NCBI RefSeq assembly: GCF_000025925.1
Contig: NC_014033.1
Span: 720,001-752,000 of the forward strand
Direction of reading: 5' to 3'
From: Xylanibacter ruminicola 23
Lineage (GTDB): Bacteria; Bacteroidota; Bacteroidia; Bacteroidales; Bacteroidaceae
DNA: 32,000 nt
Shown here: positions 7,754-32,000 of the stretch, piece by piece
How the letters are laid out: the number at the start of each line of letters is the position of its first letter
Numbering within the stretch: the first letter of the stretch is position 1
Translations under genes and position numbers: made by a program
Notes under the pieces: generated by a model
Databases searched by the model: none
What the model was told of the DNA's origin: nothing
What the model saw: only the letters and a program-made list of their open reading frames with translations

Positions 7754-7784
7754 GATGTTCAATGGTCAATGGTCAATGTTCAAT
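7754..7784. repeat. Tandem heptamer array A: GATGTTC AATGGTC AATGGTC AATGTTC AAT
   Basis: Direct reading: four 7-nt units. The array ends 8 nt before the shared promoter core of the rpsF operon. Confidence 0.9.
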
Positions 7785-7791
7785 AAAAATT

Positions 7792-7809
7792 TTGTACCTT
7801 TGCACCCGC
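7792..7809 (+). promoter_or_regulatory. rpsF operon promoter core TTGTACCTTTGCACCCGC (-7 box TACCTTTG at 7795-7802)
   Basis: TAnnTTTG match 46 nt upstream of the rpsF ATG. The 18-mer is identical to the one upstream of the 16S rRNA gene (30405-30422). Confidence 0.7.
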
Positions 7810-8485: not shown

Positions 8486-9076
8486 ATGGAAATTATACTG
8501 AAAGAAGATATTATCGGTCTGGGATTCAAGAACGATATCGTGAATGTAAAGTCTGGCTATGGCCGTAACTACCTCATCCCTCAGGGAAAGGGTGTTATTG
8601 CTAGCCCTTCAGCTAAGAAGATTCTCGCAGAGAACCTGAAGCAGCAGGCTCACAAGCTGGCTGCCCTCAAGGCTGCTGCCGAGGAGAAGGCTGCTCAGCT
8701 CAATGGTGTAGTTGTAGAGGTTGCCGCTAAGGTAAGCGTAACTGGCCAGCTCTATGGTTCAGTTGGTGCTGCTCAGGTTGCCGACGAGCTCGCTAAGCTG
8801 GGTAAGGAGGTTGATCGCAAGATCATCACCATGAAGGATGCCAAGAAGGTTGGCGACTATGTAGCTCTGGTACACTTCCACAAGGAGGTTATCGTTGAGC
8901 TCCCTGTAAAGGTAGTTGCTGAGAATGCTGCTGAGCTGCAGGCTGCTGCTGATGCTGAGGCTGCCATCAAGGCTGCTGCTGATGCAAAGAAGGCTGCTGC
9001 TAACGAGGCAGAGGCTGCTGAGGCTGCCGACGAGGCTGAGGCTCTCGAGGCAATCGATGCTCCTGCTGAGGCATAA
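8486..9076 (+). CDS. rplI: 50S ribosomal protein L9 (bL9) with a C-terminal Ala/Glu-rich extension of about 50 aa
   Basis: The N-terminus MEIILKEDIIGLGFKNDIVNVKSGYGRNYLIPQGK is typical of L9. The canonical body ends near aa 146, and residues 147-196 are low-complexity A/E/D/K. Confidence 0.93.
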   Translation: MEIILKEDIIGLGFKNDIVNVKSGYGRNYLIPQGKGVIASPSAKKILAENLKQQAHKLAALKAAAEEKAAQLNGVVVEVAAKVSVTGQLYGSVGAAQVADELAKLGKEVDRKIITMKDAKKVGDYVALVHFHKEVIVELPVKVVAENAAELQAAADAEAAIKAAADAKKAAANEAEAAEAADEAEALEAIDAPAEA

Positions 9077-17081: not shown

Positions 17082-17185
17082 GCAAACCGCTGTAAATCAG
17101 CCACTTACGAAATGTTAAATTTAGTGTATTTTTCGCACATAACTTAAAAATGGCTCAAAATGCGTGTTTTTTGCAAAAAATGTCG

Positions 17186-17193
17186 TACCTTTG
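17186..17193 (+). promoter_or_regulatory. -7 box TACCTTTG for mtaB
   Basis: GTACCTTTGTGCCCGC closely resembles the rpsF/rRNA promoter core. It lies inside the N-terminal extension of the tracked ORF, which favours the ATG at 17223. Confidence 0.55.
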
Positions 17194-17222
17194 TGCCCGC
17201 AAACAATACACCTATTTTATAT

Positions 17223-18548
17223 ATGATAGATACCTCAGCATTTCAAGGCAAAAAGGCTGCCTATTTTACACTCGGATGTAAGTTGAACTTCTCAGAAACA
17301 TCTACTTTTGGTAAGATGCTTCAGGACCTGGGCGTAAGTACTGCCCAGAAAGGCGAGCAGGCCGACATCTGTTTGATAAACACCTGTTCGGTAACCGAGG
17401 TGGCTGATAAGAAATGTCGTCAGGCCATTCACCGCTTGGTGCGCGAGAATCCCGGCGCCTTTGTGGTGGTAACGGGATGCTATGCCCAGCTCGAGGCCGA
17501 CGAGGTGGCAAAGATCGAGGGTGTAAGTCTGGTGTTAGGCTCTAACGAGAAGGCCAACCTGGTTCAGTTCTTGTCGGATGCCTGGACAGGCGCCCCCACA
17601 GCTAAGTATTATCGTGAGAAAACCAAGGATATCAAATCCTTTGCGCCCAGCTGCTCAAAGGGTAACCGCACGCGCTATTTCCTGAAGGTGCAGGATGGTT
17701 GCGATTACTTCTGCACCTACTGTACCATTCCCTACGCCCGTGGTTTTTCGCGTAACCCAACGATTGCCTCGCTGGTAGCGCAGGCCCAGGAGGCCGCTGC
17801 CGAGGGTGGTAAGGAGATTGTGCTCACCGGTGTGAACATCGGCGACTTTGGTAAGACTACCGGCGAGAAGTTTATCGACCTGGTTAAGGCGCTCGATGGG
17901 GTAGAGGGCATTCAGCGTTACCGCATCAGCTCGCTCGAACCCGATCTGATTTCGGACGAGCTCATCGAGTACTGCGCCAAGAGCCGTGCCTTCATGCCGC
18001 ACTTCCACATCCCCCTGCAGAGTGGTAGCAACACGGTGCTCAAGCTCATGCATCGTCATTACGATCGCGAGCTGTTTGCCGAGAAGATCCACCGTATCAA
18101 GGAGTTGATGCCCGATGCCTTTATCGGCGTGGATGTGATGGTGGGCTGCCGTGGCGAAACACCCGAGTGCTTCGAGGAGACCTACACGTTCCTGGATAGC
18201 CTGGATGTTACTCAGCTGCACGTGTTCCCATACTCCGAGCGCCCAGGCACATCGGCCCTCAGCATCCCATACGTGGTTCCCGAGAAGGAGAAGAAGCAGC
18301 GTGTAAAGCGCCTGCTGGAACTCTCTGATCAGAAAACCCATGCTTTCTACGAGCGTTATATCGGCCAGCAGGCCGAGGTGCTGTTCGAGAAGGCTACCCG
18401 CGGTCGTGCCATGCACGGTTTTACTAAGAACTATATCCGTGTAGAGCTGCCCGCCAAGGATGCTAACCCCGATTTCGACAATCAGCTTATCAGTGTGAAG
18501 CTGGGCGAGATGACCCGCGATAAGGAGTCGTTAATGTGTATTATATAA
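17223..18548 (+). CDS. mtaB: tRNA (t6A37) methylthiotransferase MtaB (radical SAM)
   Basis: The N-terminal UPF0004 domain AAYFTLGCKLNFSE...INTCSVT resembles MtaB/YqeV. Radical SAM motif CDYFCTYCTIP and a C-terminal TRAM-like region. Confidence 0.8.
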   Translation: MIDTSAFQGKKAAYFTLGCKLNFSETSTFGKMLQDLGVSTAQKGEQADICLINTCSVTEVADKKCRQAIHRLVRENPGAFVVVTGCYAQLEADEVAKIEGVSLVLGSNEKANLVQFLSDAWTGAPTAKYYREKTKDIKSFAPSCSKGNRTRYFLKVQDGCDYFCTYCTIPYARGFSRNPTIASLVAQAQEAAAEGGKEIVLTGVNIGDFGKTTGEKFIDLVKALDGVEGIQRYRISSLEPDLISDELIEYCAKSRAFMPHFHIPLQSGSNTVLKLMHRHYDRELFAEKIHRIKELMPDAFIGVDVMVGCRGETPECFEETYTFLDSLDVTQLHVFPYSERPGTSALSIPYVVPEKEKKQRVKRLLELSDQKTHAFYERYIGQQAEVLFEKATRGRAMHGFTKNYIRVELPAKDANPDFDNQLISVKLGEMTRDKESLMCII

Positions 18549-19588: not shown

Positions 19589-20842
19589 TTATGGCTGGGT
19601 AATCACCACCTTTACGGGCTGTTCAACCTCCTTGCGCCACAGCTTCAGGAAATTGAACCAATCCTTAGCGGTATGATAGCCAAATGTCTCGTTATCAGAG
19701 GTATACGCTATCTTGTACTTCAGTATATTCTGGTTGGCTTTTACCACAAAAGCATAGTTATCTTTGTTGGCTGGCTCCTCGCTGGCCATGTACTGCTGGG
19801 GTATCAATATACCCAAGCCCACCGTTTCGCGCTTAAAGTTGATGGTGTCGCCTGTGGGGAAGTCGCTGCCCCAACAGCCGCGCAAACCCTTATGGTCGGT
19901 AAACTCCTCCGAACCCTTTACGTTAATCACACCGGTAGAGAATCGGTAGTTGCTCACGTCGGTATGCTTCTTGGTGAAATATACTTCTACATCGGTGTCG
20001 CGATGACCGGCGTACTGGATGTAGCGTATCGTTAGGTTGATGGGTGATGGGTGGTAGGTGTTGGTGGATGGTGCCTGCCAACCTTTATCTACTAACTCTA
20101 CGATGGTGCGCAGCGGACCGTACGAGATGATGCGCTGTGTGCGCGAGGCTACGGGCTCAATCATCGTGGGTTGCTTGCCGTCCCAACCGCGGAACGCACC
20201 CAGTCCAAAGGTGTTGCCTACCCACAGCACATCGTCGCCGTAACCTTGTGCCTTCTGCTCAGGCTGGGTGTAGAACTGGGTTTCCTCCAGCTCCAGGCGC
20301 TTCTGGAACTTACCGTACAGGTCCAGTGTCTGACGTTTGTCGAAGTAGATGCGGATACCGTTCAGCTCGCTCTCAAAATCCACGCCGTGATGGTGCTGCA
20401 GGTTGTACGAGTTAGCGCAGTCGCCGCGCGCGGTGATGGCCTCGATAAAGTTGTTGTGCTTGTTTTTCTCCTTCACCTTGTCGTTGCGAATCAGCATTTC
20501 GGCAAACACGCGGGCAGGGTATTTGGCAGGCTCGTCGCACAGGTCGGTAAACAGCTGTACCTGGTACTTCAACTGCTGTTTGCCCTTCAGATCGGCCAAA
20601 AAGCAGAGCTCGTCGAACACCTCGTCCTGGTCCAGATCATCTAGCTGACAGGGTATCTCCTTGCCCTCGCAGGTAACCAGCGCGCGGCGCACTTCGCCGT
20701 AGCTGTTAAGGGGGATTATCACCGCCTGATCGGTGCGTGCGGCAGCCGATGGGTTAGTAACGCTCACGGTCAGCTGCTGCTGAGCCTGGGCGGTCATCAC
20801 ACTGATGGCAGCAAGTGCCAACGTTATCATTTTCTTCTTCAT
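19589..20842 (-). CDS. Secreted DUF4861-like protein
   Basis: Preferred start MKKKMITLALAAISVMTAQAQ (signal peptide). LTVSVTNPSAAARTDQAVIIPL resembles the N-terminus of Bacteroides DUF4861 proteins. The family call is from memory only. Confidence 0.5.
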   Translation of the reverse strand: MKKKMITLALAAISVMTAQAQQQLTVSVTNPSAAARTDQAVIIPLNSYGEVRRALVTCEGKEIPCQLDDLDQDEVFDELCFLADLKGKQQLKYQVQLFTDLCDEPAKYPARVFAEMLIRNDKVKEKNKHNNFIEAITARGDCANSYNLQHHHGVDFESELNGIRIYFDKRQTLDLYGKFQKRLELEETQFYTQPEQKAQGYGDDVLWVGNTFGLGAFRGWDGKQPTMIEPVASRTQRIISYGPLRTIVELVDKGWQAPSTNTYHPSPINLTIRYIQYAGHRDTDVEVYFTKKHTDVSNYRFSTGVINVKGSEEFTDHKGLRGCWGSDFPTGDTINFKRETVGLGILIPQQYMASEEPANKDNYAFVVKANQNILKYKIAYTSDNETFGYHTAKDWFNFLKLWRKEVEQPVKVVITQP

Positions 20843-20867
20843 CTTTTTTATTTGTCTTAGCAGAGAG

Positions 20868-20875
20868 CAAAAGTA
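20868..20875 (-). promoter_or_regulatory. -7 box TACTTTTG (minus strand) for the DUF4861-like gene
   Basis: TAnnTTTG match 25 nt upstream of the ATG at 20842; it lies within the N-terminal extension of the track ORF. Confidence 0.55.
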
Positions 20876-20990
20876 CACAAAAACCATCAAACGGCCCCCG
20901 ATTTTTACACAAATAAACAAAAATGTGCAGGTTTTTATACTTTTATTTAAATATTTTAGGTTAAAATTTGGTTTTTAAAATATTTTTTAG

Positions 20991-25040: not shown

Positions 25041-25052
25041 AACAAATAAAAA

Positions 25053-25077
25053 CCCCAGCCAATCGGCTGGGGCTTTT
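25053..25077. terminator. Bidirectional terminator between the DPP-IV gene and glyA
   Basis: AAAAACCCCAGCC aatc GGCTGGGGCTTTT: an 8-bp GC-rich stem flanked by an A-run and a T-run. Confidence 0.85.
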
Positions 25078-25082
25078 ATTTA

Positions 25083-26363
25083 TTAATAAGCGAACAAAGG
25101 ATAATCCTTCATTTTCTCGTTAACGCGGGCGCGAACGCTTGCGATAACCTCTGGGTTCTCAGGATCGTTCAGTACCTCCTCAATCCAGGCAGCAATCTGA
25201 ACCATCAGGTCCTCCTTAGCACCACGTGTGGTGATGGCAGGTGTACCCAGACGGATACCAGAAGTCTGGAAAGCGCTGCGGCTGTCGAATGGAACCATGT
25301 TCTTGTTAACGGTAATGTCGGCAGCAACCAGAGCGTTCTCAGCTACCTTACCAGTCAGCTCAGGATACTTAGAGCGCAGGTCAACCAGCATTGAGTGGTT
25401 GTCGGTACCACCGCTAACGATGCCGAAGCCACGCTTAACCAGCTCGTCGGCCAGTACCTTAGCGTTCTTCTGTACCTGCTTAGCCCACTCCTTGAACTCA
25501 GGCTGCAGAGCCTCGCCGAAAGCCACAGCCTTGGCAGCGATAACGTGCTCCAGAGGACCACCCTGCTGTCCGGGGAATACGGCTGAGTTCAGCAACTGAC
25601 TCATCATCTTGGTTACACCCTTTGGTGTCTTCAGACCCCAAGGATTCTCAAAGTCCTTACCCATCAGGATGATACCACCACGAGGACCACGCAGAGTCTT
25701 GTGGGTTGTTGATGTTACGATGTGAGCGTACTTCACAGGGTTCTCCAGCAGTCCGGCTGCAATCAGTCCTGCAGGGTGAGCCATGTCGATCATCAGCAGT
25801 GCGCCAACCTTGTCGGCAATCTCACGCATGCGCTTGTAGTCCCACTCGCGGCTGTAGGCACTACCACCACCGATAATCAGCTTTGGCTTGTGCTCCAGTG
25901 CCAGCTGCTCCATCTCGTCGTAATCTACGCGACCGGTCTCCTTGTTCAGGTTGTAACCGATGGGGTTGTAGATCAAACCAGATGTGTTTACGCGTGATCC
26001 GTGCGACAGGTGACCACCGTGATCCAGGTTCAATCCCATGAATGTGTCGCCTGGCTTCAGTACGGCCAGCAGTACGGCAGCGTTAGCCTGAGCACCTGAG
26101 TGAGGCTGTACGTTAGCGTACTCAGCACCGAAAAGCTTGCAAACGCGGTCGATAGCCAACTGCTCAACCTCGTCAACCACCTGGCAACCACCATAGTAAC
26201 GGTGTCCAGGATAACCCTCGGCGTACTTGTTAGTCAGGTAAGATCCCATGGCTTCCATCACCTGGTCGCTTACGAAGTTTTCACTTGCAATCAGCTCAAT
26301 GCCTTTCAGCTGGCGCTGATGCTCTTTCTCAATCAACTCGAAGATTGTGTTGTCTCTGTTCAT
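25083..26363 (-). CDS. glyA: Serine hydroxymethyltransferase
   Basis: [22 protein letters not shown] and the [17 protein letters not shown]-lysine motif. 426 aa. Confidence 0.96.
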
Positions 26364-26387
26364 TGTTTTGTTTATTGGGGAAAATTT

Positions 26388-26415
26388 AATGTTTCATGTT
26401 TAATGTTTAATGTAT
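26388..26415. repeat. Tandem heptamer array C: AATGTTT CATGTTT AATGTTT AATGTAT
   Basis: Direct reading: four 7-nt units immediately 3' of the pyrI stop in mRNA sense, and 24 nt upstream of the glyA ATG. Confidence 0.85.
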
Positions 26416-26438
26416 CAACAAAGTTCCACTTTGTTGAT
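26414..26438 (-). other. Perfect 11-bp hairpin (ATCAACAAAGT gga ACTTTGTTGAT) containing the pyrI stop codon
   Basis: Direct reading. The last pyrI codons DINKVELC plus TGA form the inverted repeat. Confidence 0.7.
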
Positions 26439-26861
26439 ATCCTGCTCCTTCTCGCAGTAGTGGCAAGTCAGAATGCCGTTCTCAACGTGGAAGTGGGTCT
26501 TCATCGGCTCATTGTTGGTAATACACTTGGGGTTATTACACTTCACAATGCCCTTAATCTCCGATGGTGTAACCACACTGCGCTTCTCAACCACCTCGTA
26601 GTCGCGTATAATGCTCAGTATCACGTTAGGTGCAACTACCGAGAGGCGCGACACCTCGTCGTCGGTAAAGAACTTATCGCTCACCTTGATGATACCTTTC
26701 GAGCCCACCTTTTTCGAGGGATAGTTAAAACCGATGGTAACAGGTGTTTTCAGTGTAAACAGTCCCAGCAAGCTGGCCACCTGGTATGTCTTGTCGGTTG
26801 GAATATGATCAATCACAGTGCCGTTCTCAATCGCGGCAACCAATCGCTCTTTCTTATTCAT
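26415..26861 (-). CDS. pyrI: Aspartate carbamoyltransferase regulatory subunit
   Basis: [15 protein letters not shown] and the C-terminal zinc motif CNNPKCITN...LTCHYCE. The ATG at 26861 is preferred over the track's TTG at 26870. Confidence 0.93.
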
Positions 26862-26893
26862 AATGTTCAATGTTCAATGTTCAATGTTCAATG
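26862..26893. repeat. Tandem heptamer array B: (AATGTTC)x4 perfect copies plus AATG; it fills the whole pyrB-pyrI spacer
   Basis: Direct reading. Units are at 26862, 26869, 26876 and 26883. The pyrB stop (26888-26890) lies in the last unit, and the pyrI start codon ends at 26861. Confidence 0.95.
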
Positions 26894-27838
26894 AATAATA
26901 GTTTTATCTGTTTTAACTTCGTCGAGTGTAATTCCCAGCACATCGCAGAAGATGGCCTCGCGGGCAAACAGTCCGTTACCGGCCTGTTGTATGTAGTAAG
27001 CATGTGGGTTGTCGTCCACCTCGTAGGCAATCTCGTTTACGCGTGGCAGCGGGTGCAATATCTTCATGTTAGGTTTGGCGTTTTTCAGCAGGTCGTTGTT
27101 CAGCACATATACGTTCTTTACGCGTTCGTATTCCATCAGGTCGCTGAATCTTTCTTTTTGCACGCGCGTCATATATAATATGTCGGCATCGGCTATCACC
27201 TTCTCGTTAAACGCCGTGTGCTCCTGATACTTAATGCCGTGTTCGTCGCAATAAATCTTGTATTCCTTCGGCATGGCCAGTTCCTTCGGCGCCACAAAGT
27301 GGAAGGTGGGGTTGAAGTGCCTCATGGCCATAATCAGCGAGTGTACCGTTCGTCCGTATTTCAGGTCGCCCACCAGATAGATGTTCAGATTCTCCAGCGT
27401 GCCCTGCGTCTTGTAGATCGAGTAGAGGTCAAGCATACACTGCGAGGGGTGCTGATGTGCGCCGTCGCCGGCATTCACGATGGGCACTGGGGCTACCTCC
27501 GAAGCATATTGAGCGGCGCCTTCGATATAATGGCGCATCACAATCACGTCGGCGTAGTTCGATACCATCAGGATGGTGTCCTTCAGTGTCTCGCCCTTGG
27601 TGCCGCTGGTAATCTTCGGATCGGCAAATCCGATAACACGGGCACCCAGACGGTTAGCTGCTGTTTCAAAACTAAGTCGGGTTCGGGTTGAGGGTTCGAA
27701 GAAAAGGGTTGCCACAACTTTGCCCTTCAGCAACTCACGATTGGGGTGCTTCTCGAACTCTTGCGCCATCTCAATCATGTAGAGGATCTTCTCTCGAGTG
27801 AGATCGGCAATTGTTACAAAATTATGCTTTTTCATCAA
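26888..27838 (-). CDS. pyrB: Aspartate carbamoyltransferase catalytic subunit
   Basis: [17 protein letters not shown] and HPLPR motifs. 316 aa, upstream of pyrI. Confidence 0.96.
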
Positions 27839-27857: not shown

Positions 27858-27865
27858 CAAAATTA
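27858..27865 (-). promoter_or_regulatory. -7 box TAATTTTG (minus strand) for pyrB-pyrI(-glyA)
   Basis: The minus strand reads GTGTAATTTTGCGCC, 19 nt upstream of the pyrB ATG. Confidence 0.55.
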
Positions 27866-30404: not shown

Positions 30405-30422
30405 TTGTACCTTTGCACCCGC
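30405..30422 (+). promoter_or_regulatory. rRNA operon promoter core TTGTACCTTTGCACCCGC (-7 box at 30408-30415; TTTG -33 candidate at 30384-30387)
   Basis: TAnnTTTG plus TTTG 20 nt upstream fits the Bacteroides sigma-A consensus. It lies about 200 nt upstream of the 16S 5' end. Confidence 0.7.
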
Positions 30423-30521: not shown

Positions 30522-30620
30522 TGGGTAAATGAACAAACCGTTTCAATTTCTTGAATTTGGATAGTTGTTCTGAGACAGATACATTTCTATTTTAAATAGA
30601 ATAAACAAACAATTTTTTAC

Positions 30621-32000
<1,380 letters not shown>

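Follow-up and report, generated by a model that had tools for sequence, protein, structure and literature searches.

Long microsatellites in bacteria are most often heptameric, and their role is very poorly understood. In the account of Mrazek 2007 that is given in PMC4679880 and PMC4692102, no other class of long SSR is as abundant as heptamers in most prokaryote genomes; polymerase slippage is proposed for them. TAACTGA repeats have been described from marine Beggiatoaceae, cyanobacteria, and five Bacteroidetes (MacGregor 2015, PMC4679880). Rumen Prevotella/Xylanibacter are not mentioned in what PMC4679880 and PMC4692102 report on such repeats, and a literature search on heptamers in P. ruminicola found no report. 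Bacteroidia ribosomes ignore Shine-Dalgarno (SD) sequences, and SD-less genes are normal there (PMC6847099). In Flavobacterium johnsoniae, initiation is favored by A at -3, -6, -12, and -13 together with low secondary structure, and extra AUGs are depleted near start codons in F. johnsoniae/Bacteroidetes (PMC6847099).

The window, which is the whole 32,000-nt stretch of DNA that was analyzed, carries a heptamer array at the junction of pyrB and pyrI. The array, the two genes that it joins, and an in-frame UUG are located as follows.

26862..26893, minus strand: heptamer array (Tandem Repeats Finder: period 7, 4.6 copies, 100% matches, score 64, unit AATGTTC)
26888..27835, minus strand: pyrB, aspartate carbamoyltransferase catalytic chain, 315 aa (ORF; PF02729 and PF00185 in identical-context genes)
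26415..26861, minus strand: pyrI, regulatory chain, 148 aa (PF01948 and PF02748)
26868..26870, minus strand: UUG in the last repeat unit, in the pyrI frame (ORF 26415..26870 with a TTG start, MNIMNKK...; frame confirmed)

A preliminary description of this DNA had reported a perfect AATGTTC array at 26862-26893, and Tandem Repeats Finder and the raw sequence agree on it. In mRNA sense the array is (CAUUGAA)x4.6. It takes in the final sense codon of pyrB (CAU) with the stop after it and fills the entire pyrB-pyrI spacer, which is a gap of 26 nt between stop and start. The mRNA across the junction reads AUU CAU UGA ACAUUGAACAUUGAACAUUGAACAUU AUG, i.e., AUU-CAU-UGA-(ACAUUGA)n-ACAUU-AUG. The pyrB gene ends in ...ATT CAT TGA, and its UGA stop (26888-26890) lies in the first repeat unit. 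The spacer had been described as consisting wholly of the array, which is correct for the spacer itself, but the array begins inside the final sense codon of pyrB (CAT) and is thus not purely intergenic. The pyrI AUG (26859-26861) directly adjoins the array end, and this start is backed by the N-terminus MNK(K), which is kept in ~90 homologous loci. The in-frame UUG is a possible minor pyrI start that would add Met-Asn-Ile.

Translation of all three minus-strand frames found a stop codon within the array in each of them, in agreement with the earlier statement that UGA closes all three frames and that the array runs into the pyrI AUG. UGA is present in every frame because a 7-nt unit that holds the upstream stop repeats that stop each 7 nt. 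The all-frame UGA follows from where such repeats can grow without harming either protein and need not be a matter of design. Folding and a terminator scan found no SD, hairpin, or terminator in the pyrB-pyrI spacer, and no structure is predicted for the array by itself (MFE 0.0), which upholds the earlier reading of a spacer without SD or hairpin. No inverted copy of the pyrB-pyrI array is present in the 32,000-nt window. A search with the three-unit pattern and at most 3 mismatches gave 5 matches at two loci vs. an expected 0.00 (100 window shuffles). When tandem arrays with periods from 4 to 12 were listed for the window, only the three period-7 arrays reached at least 4 copies.

The array is surrounded by an 8-nt inverted repeat, UUAUUCAU at 26894-26901 (pyrB end) and AUGAAUAA at 26854-26861 (pyrI start). 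The MFE fold pairs UUAUUCAU with AUGAAUAA and brings the predicted accessibility of the AUG down to 0.60, vs. 0.78 in the array-less allele L006; this flanking repeat may be a coincidence of conserved codons. On the plus strand the AATGTTC orientation features an ATG in every frame and no stops, which gives long false antisense ORFs, located in the window at 26100-26894 (+) and 26870-27178 (+). Length-based gene calling picked a false 191-aa antisense ORF through the array over pyrI, and genes were called by codon-usage score in place of ORF length. In public contigs (L221/L222:81) a false TTG start is found inside an array.

Two related arrays had also been noted elsewhere in the window. Both are real, and Tandem Repeats Finder and the sequence place them at 26385-26413 and 7755-7784. 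These arrays and the features that define the transcript context are listed below.

26385..26413, minus strand: array 2, CAUUAAA/CAUGAAA, ~4 units, in the pyrI-glyA spacer (Tandem Repeats Finder; sequence)
26364..26384, minus strand: glyA leader UUUUCCCCAAUAAACAAAACA, 21 nt, between array 2 and the glyA AUG (strain and relative comparison)
25083..26363, minus strand: glyA, serine hydroxymethyltransferase (ORF; PF00464)
27858..27865, minus strand: Bacteroidetes-type -7 box TAATTTTG, upstream of pyrB (pattern TANNTTTG)
25041..25084, both strands: terminator-like hairpin between glyA and a convergent dipeptidyl-peptidase gene (terminator-like scan)
7755..7784, plus strand: array 3, ATGTTCA/ATGGTCA, reverse complement of the ATTGA type (Tandem Repeats Finder; sequence)

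The pyrI-glyA array begins 1 nt past the pyrI stop. The glyA leader that follows it hardly varies, with 1-2 base changes across all strains and array-less relatives. The three genes pyrB-pyrI-glyA are probably carried on one mRNA, with glyA as the third gene and both arrays inside. A pattern scan found no -7 box (TAnnTTTG) between pyrB, pyrI, and glyA, and an internal pyrI promoter is rejected on the absence of this box between pyrB and glyA. Between the end of array 3 and the downstream rpsF -7 box TACCTTTG (7795-7802) lie 10 nt. The sole match in an Rfam scan of the window is a 16S rRNA gene, and no tRNA genes were found in the window. The 16S rRNA gene (RF00177, 1303 bits) at 30619-32000 (+) runs past the window end and has a TACCTTTG box upstream at 30408-30415.

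Strain variation was determined in a set of ten contigs (L001-L010) whose PyrI protein is identical to that of the window. Across the three genes pyrB, pyrI, and glyA, GCA_019973335.1 and GCA_900108375.1 match the window at 100% identity and CP071890, which is Xylanibacter (formerly Prevotella) ruminicola KHP1 (PMC11575231), at 99.5%. KHP1 has three units at pyrB-pyrI, and the strain of assembly GCA_000687715.1 has no array there. A comparison of unit number between strains at pyrB-pyrI, which had been proposed in the preliminary description, revealed that the array is polymorphic, with 4, 3, or 0 units. Four units are present in L001, L003, L004, and L005, and three units in L002, L007, L008, and L010. 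The array is absent from L006 and L009, in which the stop codon of pyrB shares bases with the start codon of pyrI (ATGA). The pyrB and pyrI ORFs are both intact at 0, 3, and 4 units. Strains that are at most 0.75% apart over 2.66 kb of flanking coding sequence (at least 99.25% identical) differ in pyrB-pyrI unit number, 3 vs. 4, and a strain with 97.3% identical flanking genes is without the array. These alleles among strains of identical PyrI support the slippage-prone tract that had been suggested as one reading of the repeat.

The other two arrays vary as well. The pyrI-glyA spacer in the same ten contigs features CATTAAA x4, CATTGAA x5, (C/G)ATTAAA x7, AATTGAY x6, or a single unit, and both the unit number and the unit sequence differ between strains that are at least 99.25% identical in flanking genes. 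The units of the array upstream of rpsF are, by strain, GTTCAAT, GGTCAAT, TGTCAAT, TCTCAAT, and TGCCAAT, and this array is missing in one contig with an identical RpsF protein. Judged from these alleles, the arrays evolve far faster than the surrounding DNA. Length differences of other kinds were seen between strains at genes elsewhere in the window. The rplI gene (ribosomal protein L9) contains imperfect 18- and 27-nt repeats (GCTGAGGCTGCTGCTGA...) at 8917-9051 (+), and the length of L9 between strains is 192 to 197 aa. The called lengths of the radical-SAM (UPF0004) and DUF4861 genes (17160-18548 and 19589-20920) are 441-475 and 412-443 aa across L001-L010, and the DUF4861 ORF contains a TGATGGG x3.9 repeat at 20038-20064.

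Orthologous junctions were compared in 80 loci of relatives, obtained from a PyrI scan of metagenome contigs at 73-94% protein identity. The commonest orthologous state is the ATGA overlap, which is found in 25 of the 80 junctions. Clean period-7 arrays are present in 10 and a period-8 array in 1, and many more junctions feature degenerate repeats of unrelated units. The 50 loci with at least 81% identity include 20 with the ATGA overlap, 2 with a very short spacer, 9 with a clean period-7 array, and 1 with a period-8 array; the rest are 17 longer spacers, many of them visibly degenerate repeats, and 1 locus without a pyrB-like ORF upstream. The 30 more distant loci show the overlap in 5 and an array in 1. 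The pyrB-pyrI units turn over across relatives and comprise CATTGAA/GATTGAA, AATTGAC, TTTGAAC, GATTTAC, GTTAAGA, GTTTAGA, ACGAATT, CGTAATAA, AGGAGTAA, and CTTATAGGA; the spacer downstream of pyrI is likewise varied. Clustering of pyrI DNA places overlap and array alleles interleaved over ~50 sequence clusters, in an average-linkage clustering of 441 nt that falls short of a robust tree and leaves room for between-species recombination. The simplest reading of these junctions is that the ATGA overlap is probably ancestral and that arrays arose or turned over many times. The designed termination-reinitiation spacer that the preliminary description had put forward is not supported as a conserved design by the relatives, in which the commonest state is a 4-nt ATGA overlap and other lineages have arrays of unrelated units at this junction. 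Spacers of 26 nt recur in separate lineages with different unit variants (L134, L136, L137, L143, L173, L199, and the window), and pyrB-pyrI spacers of 19 nt are found in L131, in L174, and in the 3-unit strains.

The abundance of period 7 was determined in an unbiased sample of 505 kb of rumen-clade sequence, which was chosen by PyrI and not by repeats, with arrays of at least 3.5 copies counted. This sample contains 30 period-7 arrays vs. 5, 1, 14, 6, and 5 arrays for periods 4, 5, 6, 8, and 9, and shuffled controls gave 0 arrays at periods of at least 6. More distant relatives (391 kb) contain 2 period-7 arrays only. Bacteroidales loci (321 kb) contain 50 period-7 arrays vs. 15 of all other periods, with the array that triggered retrieval left out. 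The earlier argument that related arrays elsewhere speak against chance is right; period 7 is strongly over-represented in the clade. The 30 arrays of the 505 kb sample comprise 26 unit types. The largest unit class is the ATTGA core, which is common to all three window arrays and accounts for 5 of the 30 vs. 1.4-3% by chance (6- to 12-fold). A scan of the whole collection with ATTGANN x4 found at least 120 stretches in rumen Bacteroidales, cyanobacteria, Acidobacteria, Deltaproteobacteria, and others; this pattern forces the core and gives breadth across phyla, not core enrichment.

The unbiased sample also reveals where the arrays are placed. It includes 21 arrays that lie between co-directional genes. 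In 14 of them the array overlaps or touches the stop codon of the upstream gene, and in 11 its end is at most 10 nt from the downstream start. Stop codons are borne by the sense strand only in 11 of these arrays, by both strands in 5, by neither in 3, and by just the antisense strand in 2. The bias toward a stop-bearing sense strand is thus clear here (11 vs. 2) but weak in the sample that was selected by pattern (17 vs. 14).

The leader that the array makes for pyrI was compared with the leaders of other genes. The consensus of 430 genes of the rumen loci, a profile that rests on rough gene calls made in this analysis, features A at -3, -5, -6, and -12 to -14 and T at -1 and -2. This profile agrees with that of Flavobacterium johnsoniae (PMC6847099). 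The array-made pyrI leader matches it, with A at -3, -5, -6, -10, -12, and -13, U at -1 and -2, and no AUG. The observed register is the best-scoring of the 7 possible registers in 16 of 21 array-abutted start codons, which are not fully independent, as several are from the same locus or share an ATT|ATG end. This result is evidence that only compatible registers persist and is not proof of function; the register effect could come from how arrays are born rather than from selection.

Heptamer arrays were also found as inverted pairs. Inverted pairs of the same array, 60-180 nt apart with no gene between, are present in L014, L100, L034, L109, L117, L033, L086, and L123. Such gene-less pairs recur in Acidobacteria, cyanobacteria, Chlamydiota, and Bacteroidales and could, from their sequence, form long hairpins. 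In a deltaproteobacterial MAG (L072:2357-2990), inverted ATTGAAW arrays surround a segment of ~600 nt that holds a 95-aa ORF on the opposite strand, the family of which was not recognized.

A rumen MAG features a 119-aa PF05635 gene between serC and serA (L055:5209-5640, E = 1.4e-27). PF05635 is the 23S rRNA intervening-sequence protein, an Avd-like four-helix bundle. The left arm, (CATTGAT/CATTGAA)n, extends from the serC stop into the ATG of the PF05635 gene over 26 nt (CAT TGA ... CATT ATG), and the right arm, (AATGTTC)n, starts at the stop codon of the PF05635 gene; the arms are inverted and of the ATTGA type. The same serC-serA layout is present in many rumen Prevotella, among them L223-L246 (e.g., L223:2470-2900), and 25 contigs that were fetched via four close homologues have it; a more distant PF05635 homologue has this layout at a second locus (L090:1716-2215). 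The two arms are predicted to pair in a duplex of -34 to -37 kcal/mol that encloses the ORF. Stems delimit 23S rRNA intervening sequences, and the paired heptamer arms are reminiscent of them. Many near-identical PF05635 proteins sit on contigs of just 500-1500 nt, which suggests that the heptamer arrays on either side interrupt metagenome assembly. A general rule by which inverted heptamer pairs would surround PF05635 genes was rejected, since other pairs lack such a gene and the close homologues are all at one locus. No PF05635 homologue was found among the window ORFs, and a link between this cassette and the pyrB-pyrI array is offered as a hypothesis.

The explanation that is considered probable is a hypermutable heptanucleotide microsatellite that has replaced the ATGA overlap and is filtered by the tolerance of the flanking genes. 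Strand slippage in replication or repair would create and resize the array, a mechanism that we infer from the allele patterns in assemblies. The array would have colonized the stop/start junction of the polycistronic pyrB-pyrI-glyA mRNA in Xylanibacter (Prevotella) ruminicola, and it would persist there through harmlessness and not through the need for a device. PyrB is unchanged at any copy number because the unit carries the pyrB stop, and the array would be tolerated also since the sense strand is without AUG and no structure is predicted for the RNA. The array adjoins the pyrI AUG in a register that would give an SD-less leader of the kind that Bacteroidia ribosomes favor. In this way the ancestral ATGA overlap, with its tight translational coupling, would have become a 19- or 26-nt spacer from which pyrI would start by reinitiation or by de novo initiation. 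The array appears to be nearly neutral; the over-representation of the ATTGA core and the recurrence of 19- and 26-nt spacers in separate lineages suggest more than neutral drift. Its features suggest a by-product of slippage that is tolerated at this site and not an element built for control.

Other explanations assign a role to the repeat. A selected tunable intercistronic leader would uncouple pyrI from pyrB translation, provide optimal SD-less initiation, and set the PyrI:PyrB ratio through unit number. Such a leader fits A at -3, -6, -12, and -13 and U at -1 and -2, with the best of 7 registers in 16/21 starts, and it fits a sense strand without AUG, which matches the AUG depletion near Bacteroidetes starts, as well as the predicted lack of RNA structure, the recurrence of 19- or 26-nt spacers, and the abutment of such arrays on the start codons of many unrelated genes. 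It nevertheless seems rather unlikely, given that the ATGA overlap serves the same two genes in the 97.3%-identical strain and in ~40% of related species and therefore no spacer is required, that unit sequences are unrelated between lineages, and that arrays also occur antisense and away from start codons. The alternative of a binding platform, akin to the protein- or RNA-binding array that the preliminary description had also named, proposes that a putative trans-acting factor (ribosomal protein S1, cold-shock-type, or Avd-like PF05635) reads ATTGA heptamers on RNA/DNA and co-regulates the array-bearing genes, an idea that MacGregor 2015 (PMC4679880) also raised for TAACTGA repeats. The 26 unit types in 30 arrays and the unrelated units at the same orthologous junction argue against a sequence-specific binder; additionally, the array is present or absent between near-identical strains, both array orientations occur, and the PF05635 gene is absent from the window and from beside most arrays. 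A platform of this type is very unlikely, even with an ATTGA core that the three window arrays share and that is over-represented 6- to 12-fold among units and a PF05635 gene that is itself bracketed by inverted ATTGA-type arrays at serC-serA and one other locus.

The serC-serA cassette gives rise to a further proposal, namely that the solo array is the remnant or landing site of a small intervening-sequence-like cassette, e.g., a PF05635 gene with inverted heptamer arms. The left arm of serC-IVP-serA, AAT CAT TGA CCATTGACCATTGAACATTGACCATT ATG, has nearly the same architecture and, like the pyrB-pyrI spacer, 26 nt, and inverted heptamer-array pairs are common in several phyla. This origin is highly improbable, however, as the window features neither an inverted partner nor a PF05635 gene, the close PF05635 homologues examined are all at one serC-serA site with no sign of mobility, and other inverted pairs enclose no PF05635 gene. 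A classical phase-variation switch (contingency locus) that turns pyrI on or off is extremely improbable and is rejected here. Repeat number is polymorphic between strains, but the repeat sits between two ORFs that are both intact at each unit number observed, no promoter box is present in or after the array, and pyrB and pyrI are housekeeping genes rather than surface or virulence genes; neither frame nor promoter is affected. A broader and speculative proposal, which is unlikely, treats the heptamer arrays of rumen Prevotella/Xylanibacter as a clade-wide evolvable RNA-level system, in which solo arrays would be SD-independent leaders that set coupling, inverted pairs would be stems that excise or insulate inserted genes, and the arrays might be targets of an Avd-like PF05635 protein or of RNase III.

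The pyrB-pyrI locus amounts to a clean natural experiment. Related, partly culturable rumen bacteria have, at one and the same junction of an essential operon, a 4-nt overlap, 3 or 4 units of one heptamer, or arrays of unrelated heptamers. The locus bears on how Shine-Dalgarno-less Bacteroidia initiate translation within operons and on whether microsatellite length tunes subunit stoichiometry. The arrays also have practical consequences, as gene callers are led astray by the false antisense ORFs and TTG starts that they create, and the arrays are suspected of breaking metagenome assemblies.

Among known systems, the ATGA stop/start overlap occupies the same junction in relatives and has the same task of passing ribosomes from pyrB to pyrI. 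In the window this overlap is lost, and stop and start are 26 nt apart; the overlap itself is found in L006, L009, and 25/80 relatives. The PF05635 cassette is absent from the window and present at serC-serA in other genomes. HutP- or TRAP-style RNA regulators recognize periodic triplets, in the case of HutP a UAG every 7 nt. The array has a likeness to such sites, and the unit diversity found here argues against this reading. Cyanobacterial STRR belong to another phylum and feature other canonical units; in many cases they are far longer, and they show no link to stop/start junctions. They share with the present arrays, as far as the Calothrix report is cited in PMC4692102, the intergenic tandem heptamers in many copies per genome, and cyanobacteria are among the matches listed in the ATTGANN x4 scan. 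The GGGAATC and GGGGA(T/C)T repeats of Xanthomonas/Nostoc (PMC4692102) are likewise heptamer arrays in the same-gene intergenic regions of related species with extensive length and sequence variation; however, these repeats are G-rich and quadruplex-forming, whereas the pyrB-pyrI array is A/U-rich and predicted to be unstructured.

The TAACTGA repeats (PMC4679880) are similar in that a stop-bearing forward heptamer, predicted to be unstructured, is located a few nt upstream of SD-less starts, with 7-nt-step differences between strains and an occurrence in ribosomal-protein and housekeeping operons. The placement of the pyrB-pyrI array is of this type, as it abuts the SD-less pyrI AUG and closes each frame with a stop. 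Its unit is GAACATT, and membership in the TAACTGA family is rejected on unit sequence; two units of TAACTGA with at most 2 mismatches had no match in the window. Additionally, a single unit dominates in Beggiatoaceae whereas many unrelated units coexist in the rumen clade, which weakens the case for one specific binder. The prokaryotic LSSR, as outlined in PMC4679880 and PMC4692102, are head-to-tail 7-nt units, mostly intergenic and far above chance and other periods, which vary in length and sequence between close relatives and for which polymerase slippage is proposed. The clades named in that outline are Burkholderia, Xanthomonas, actinobacteria, and cyanobacteria, and the tight stop-to-start placement does not form part of it. 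The pyrB-pyrI array has 4.6 perfect copies where 0 are expected in 100 shuffles, its copy number varies by whole units between close strains, and period 7 is over-represented. The array therefore joins a known but poorly understood heptamer class that includes heptameric SSRs, STRR, and TAACTGA repeats.
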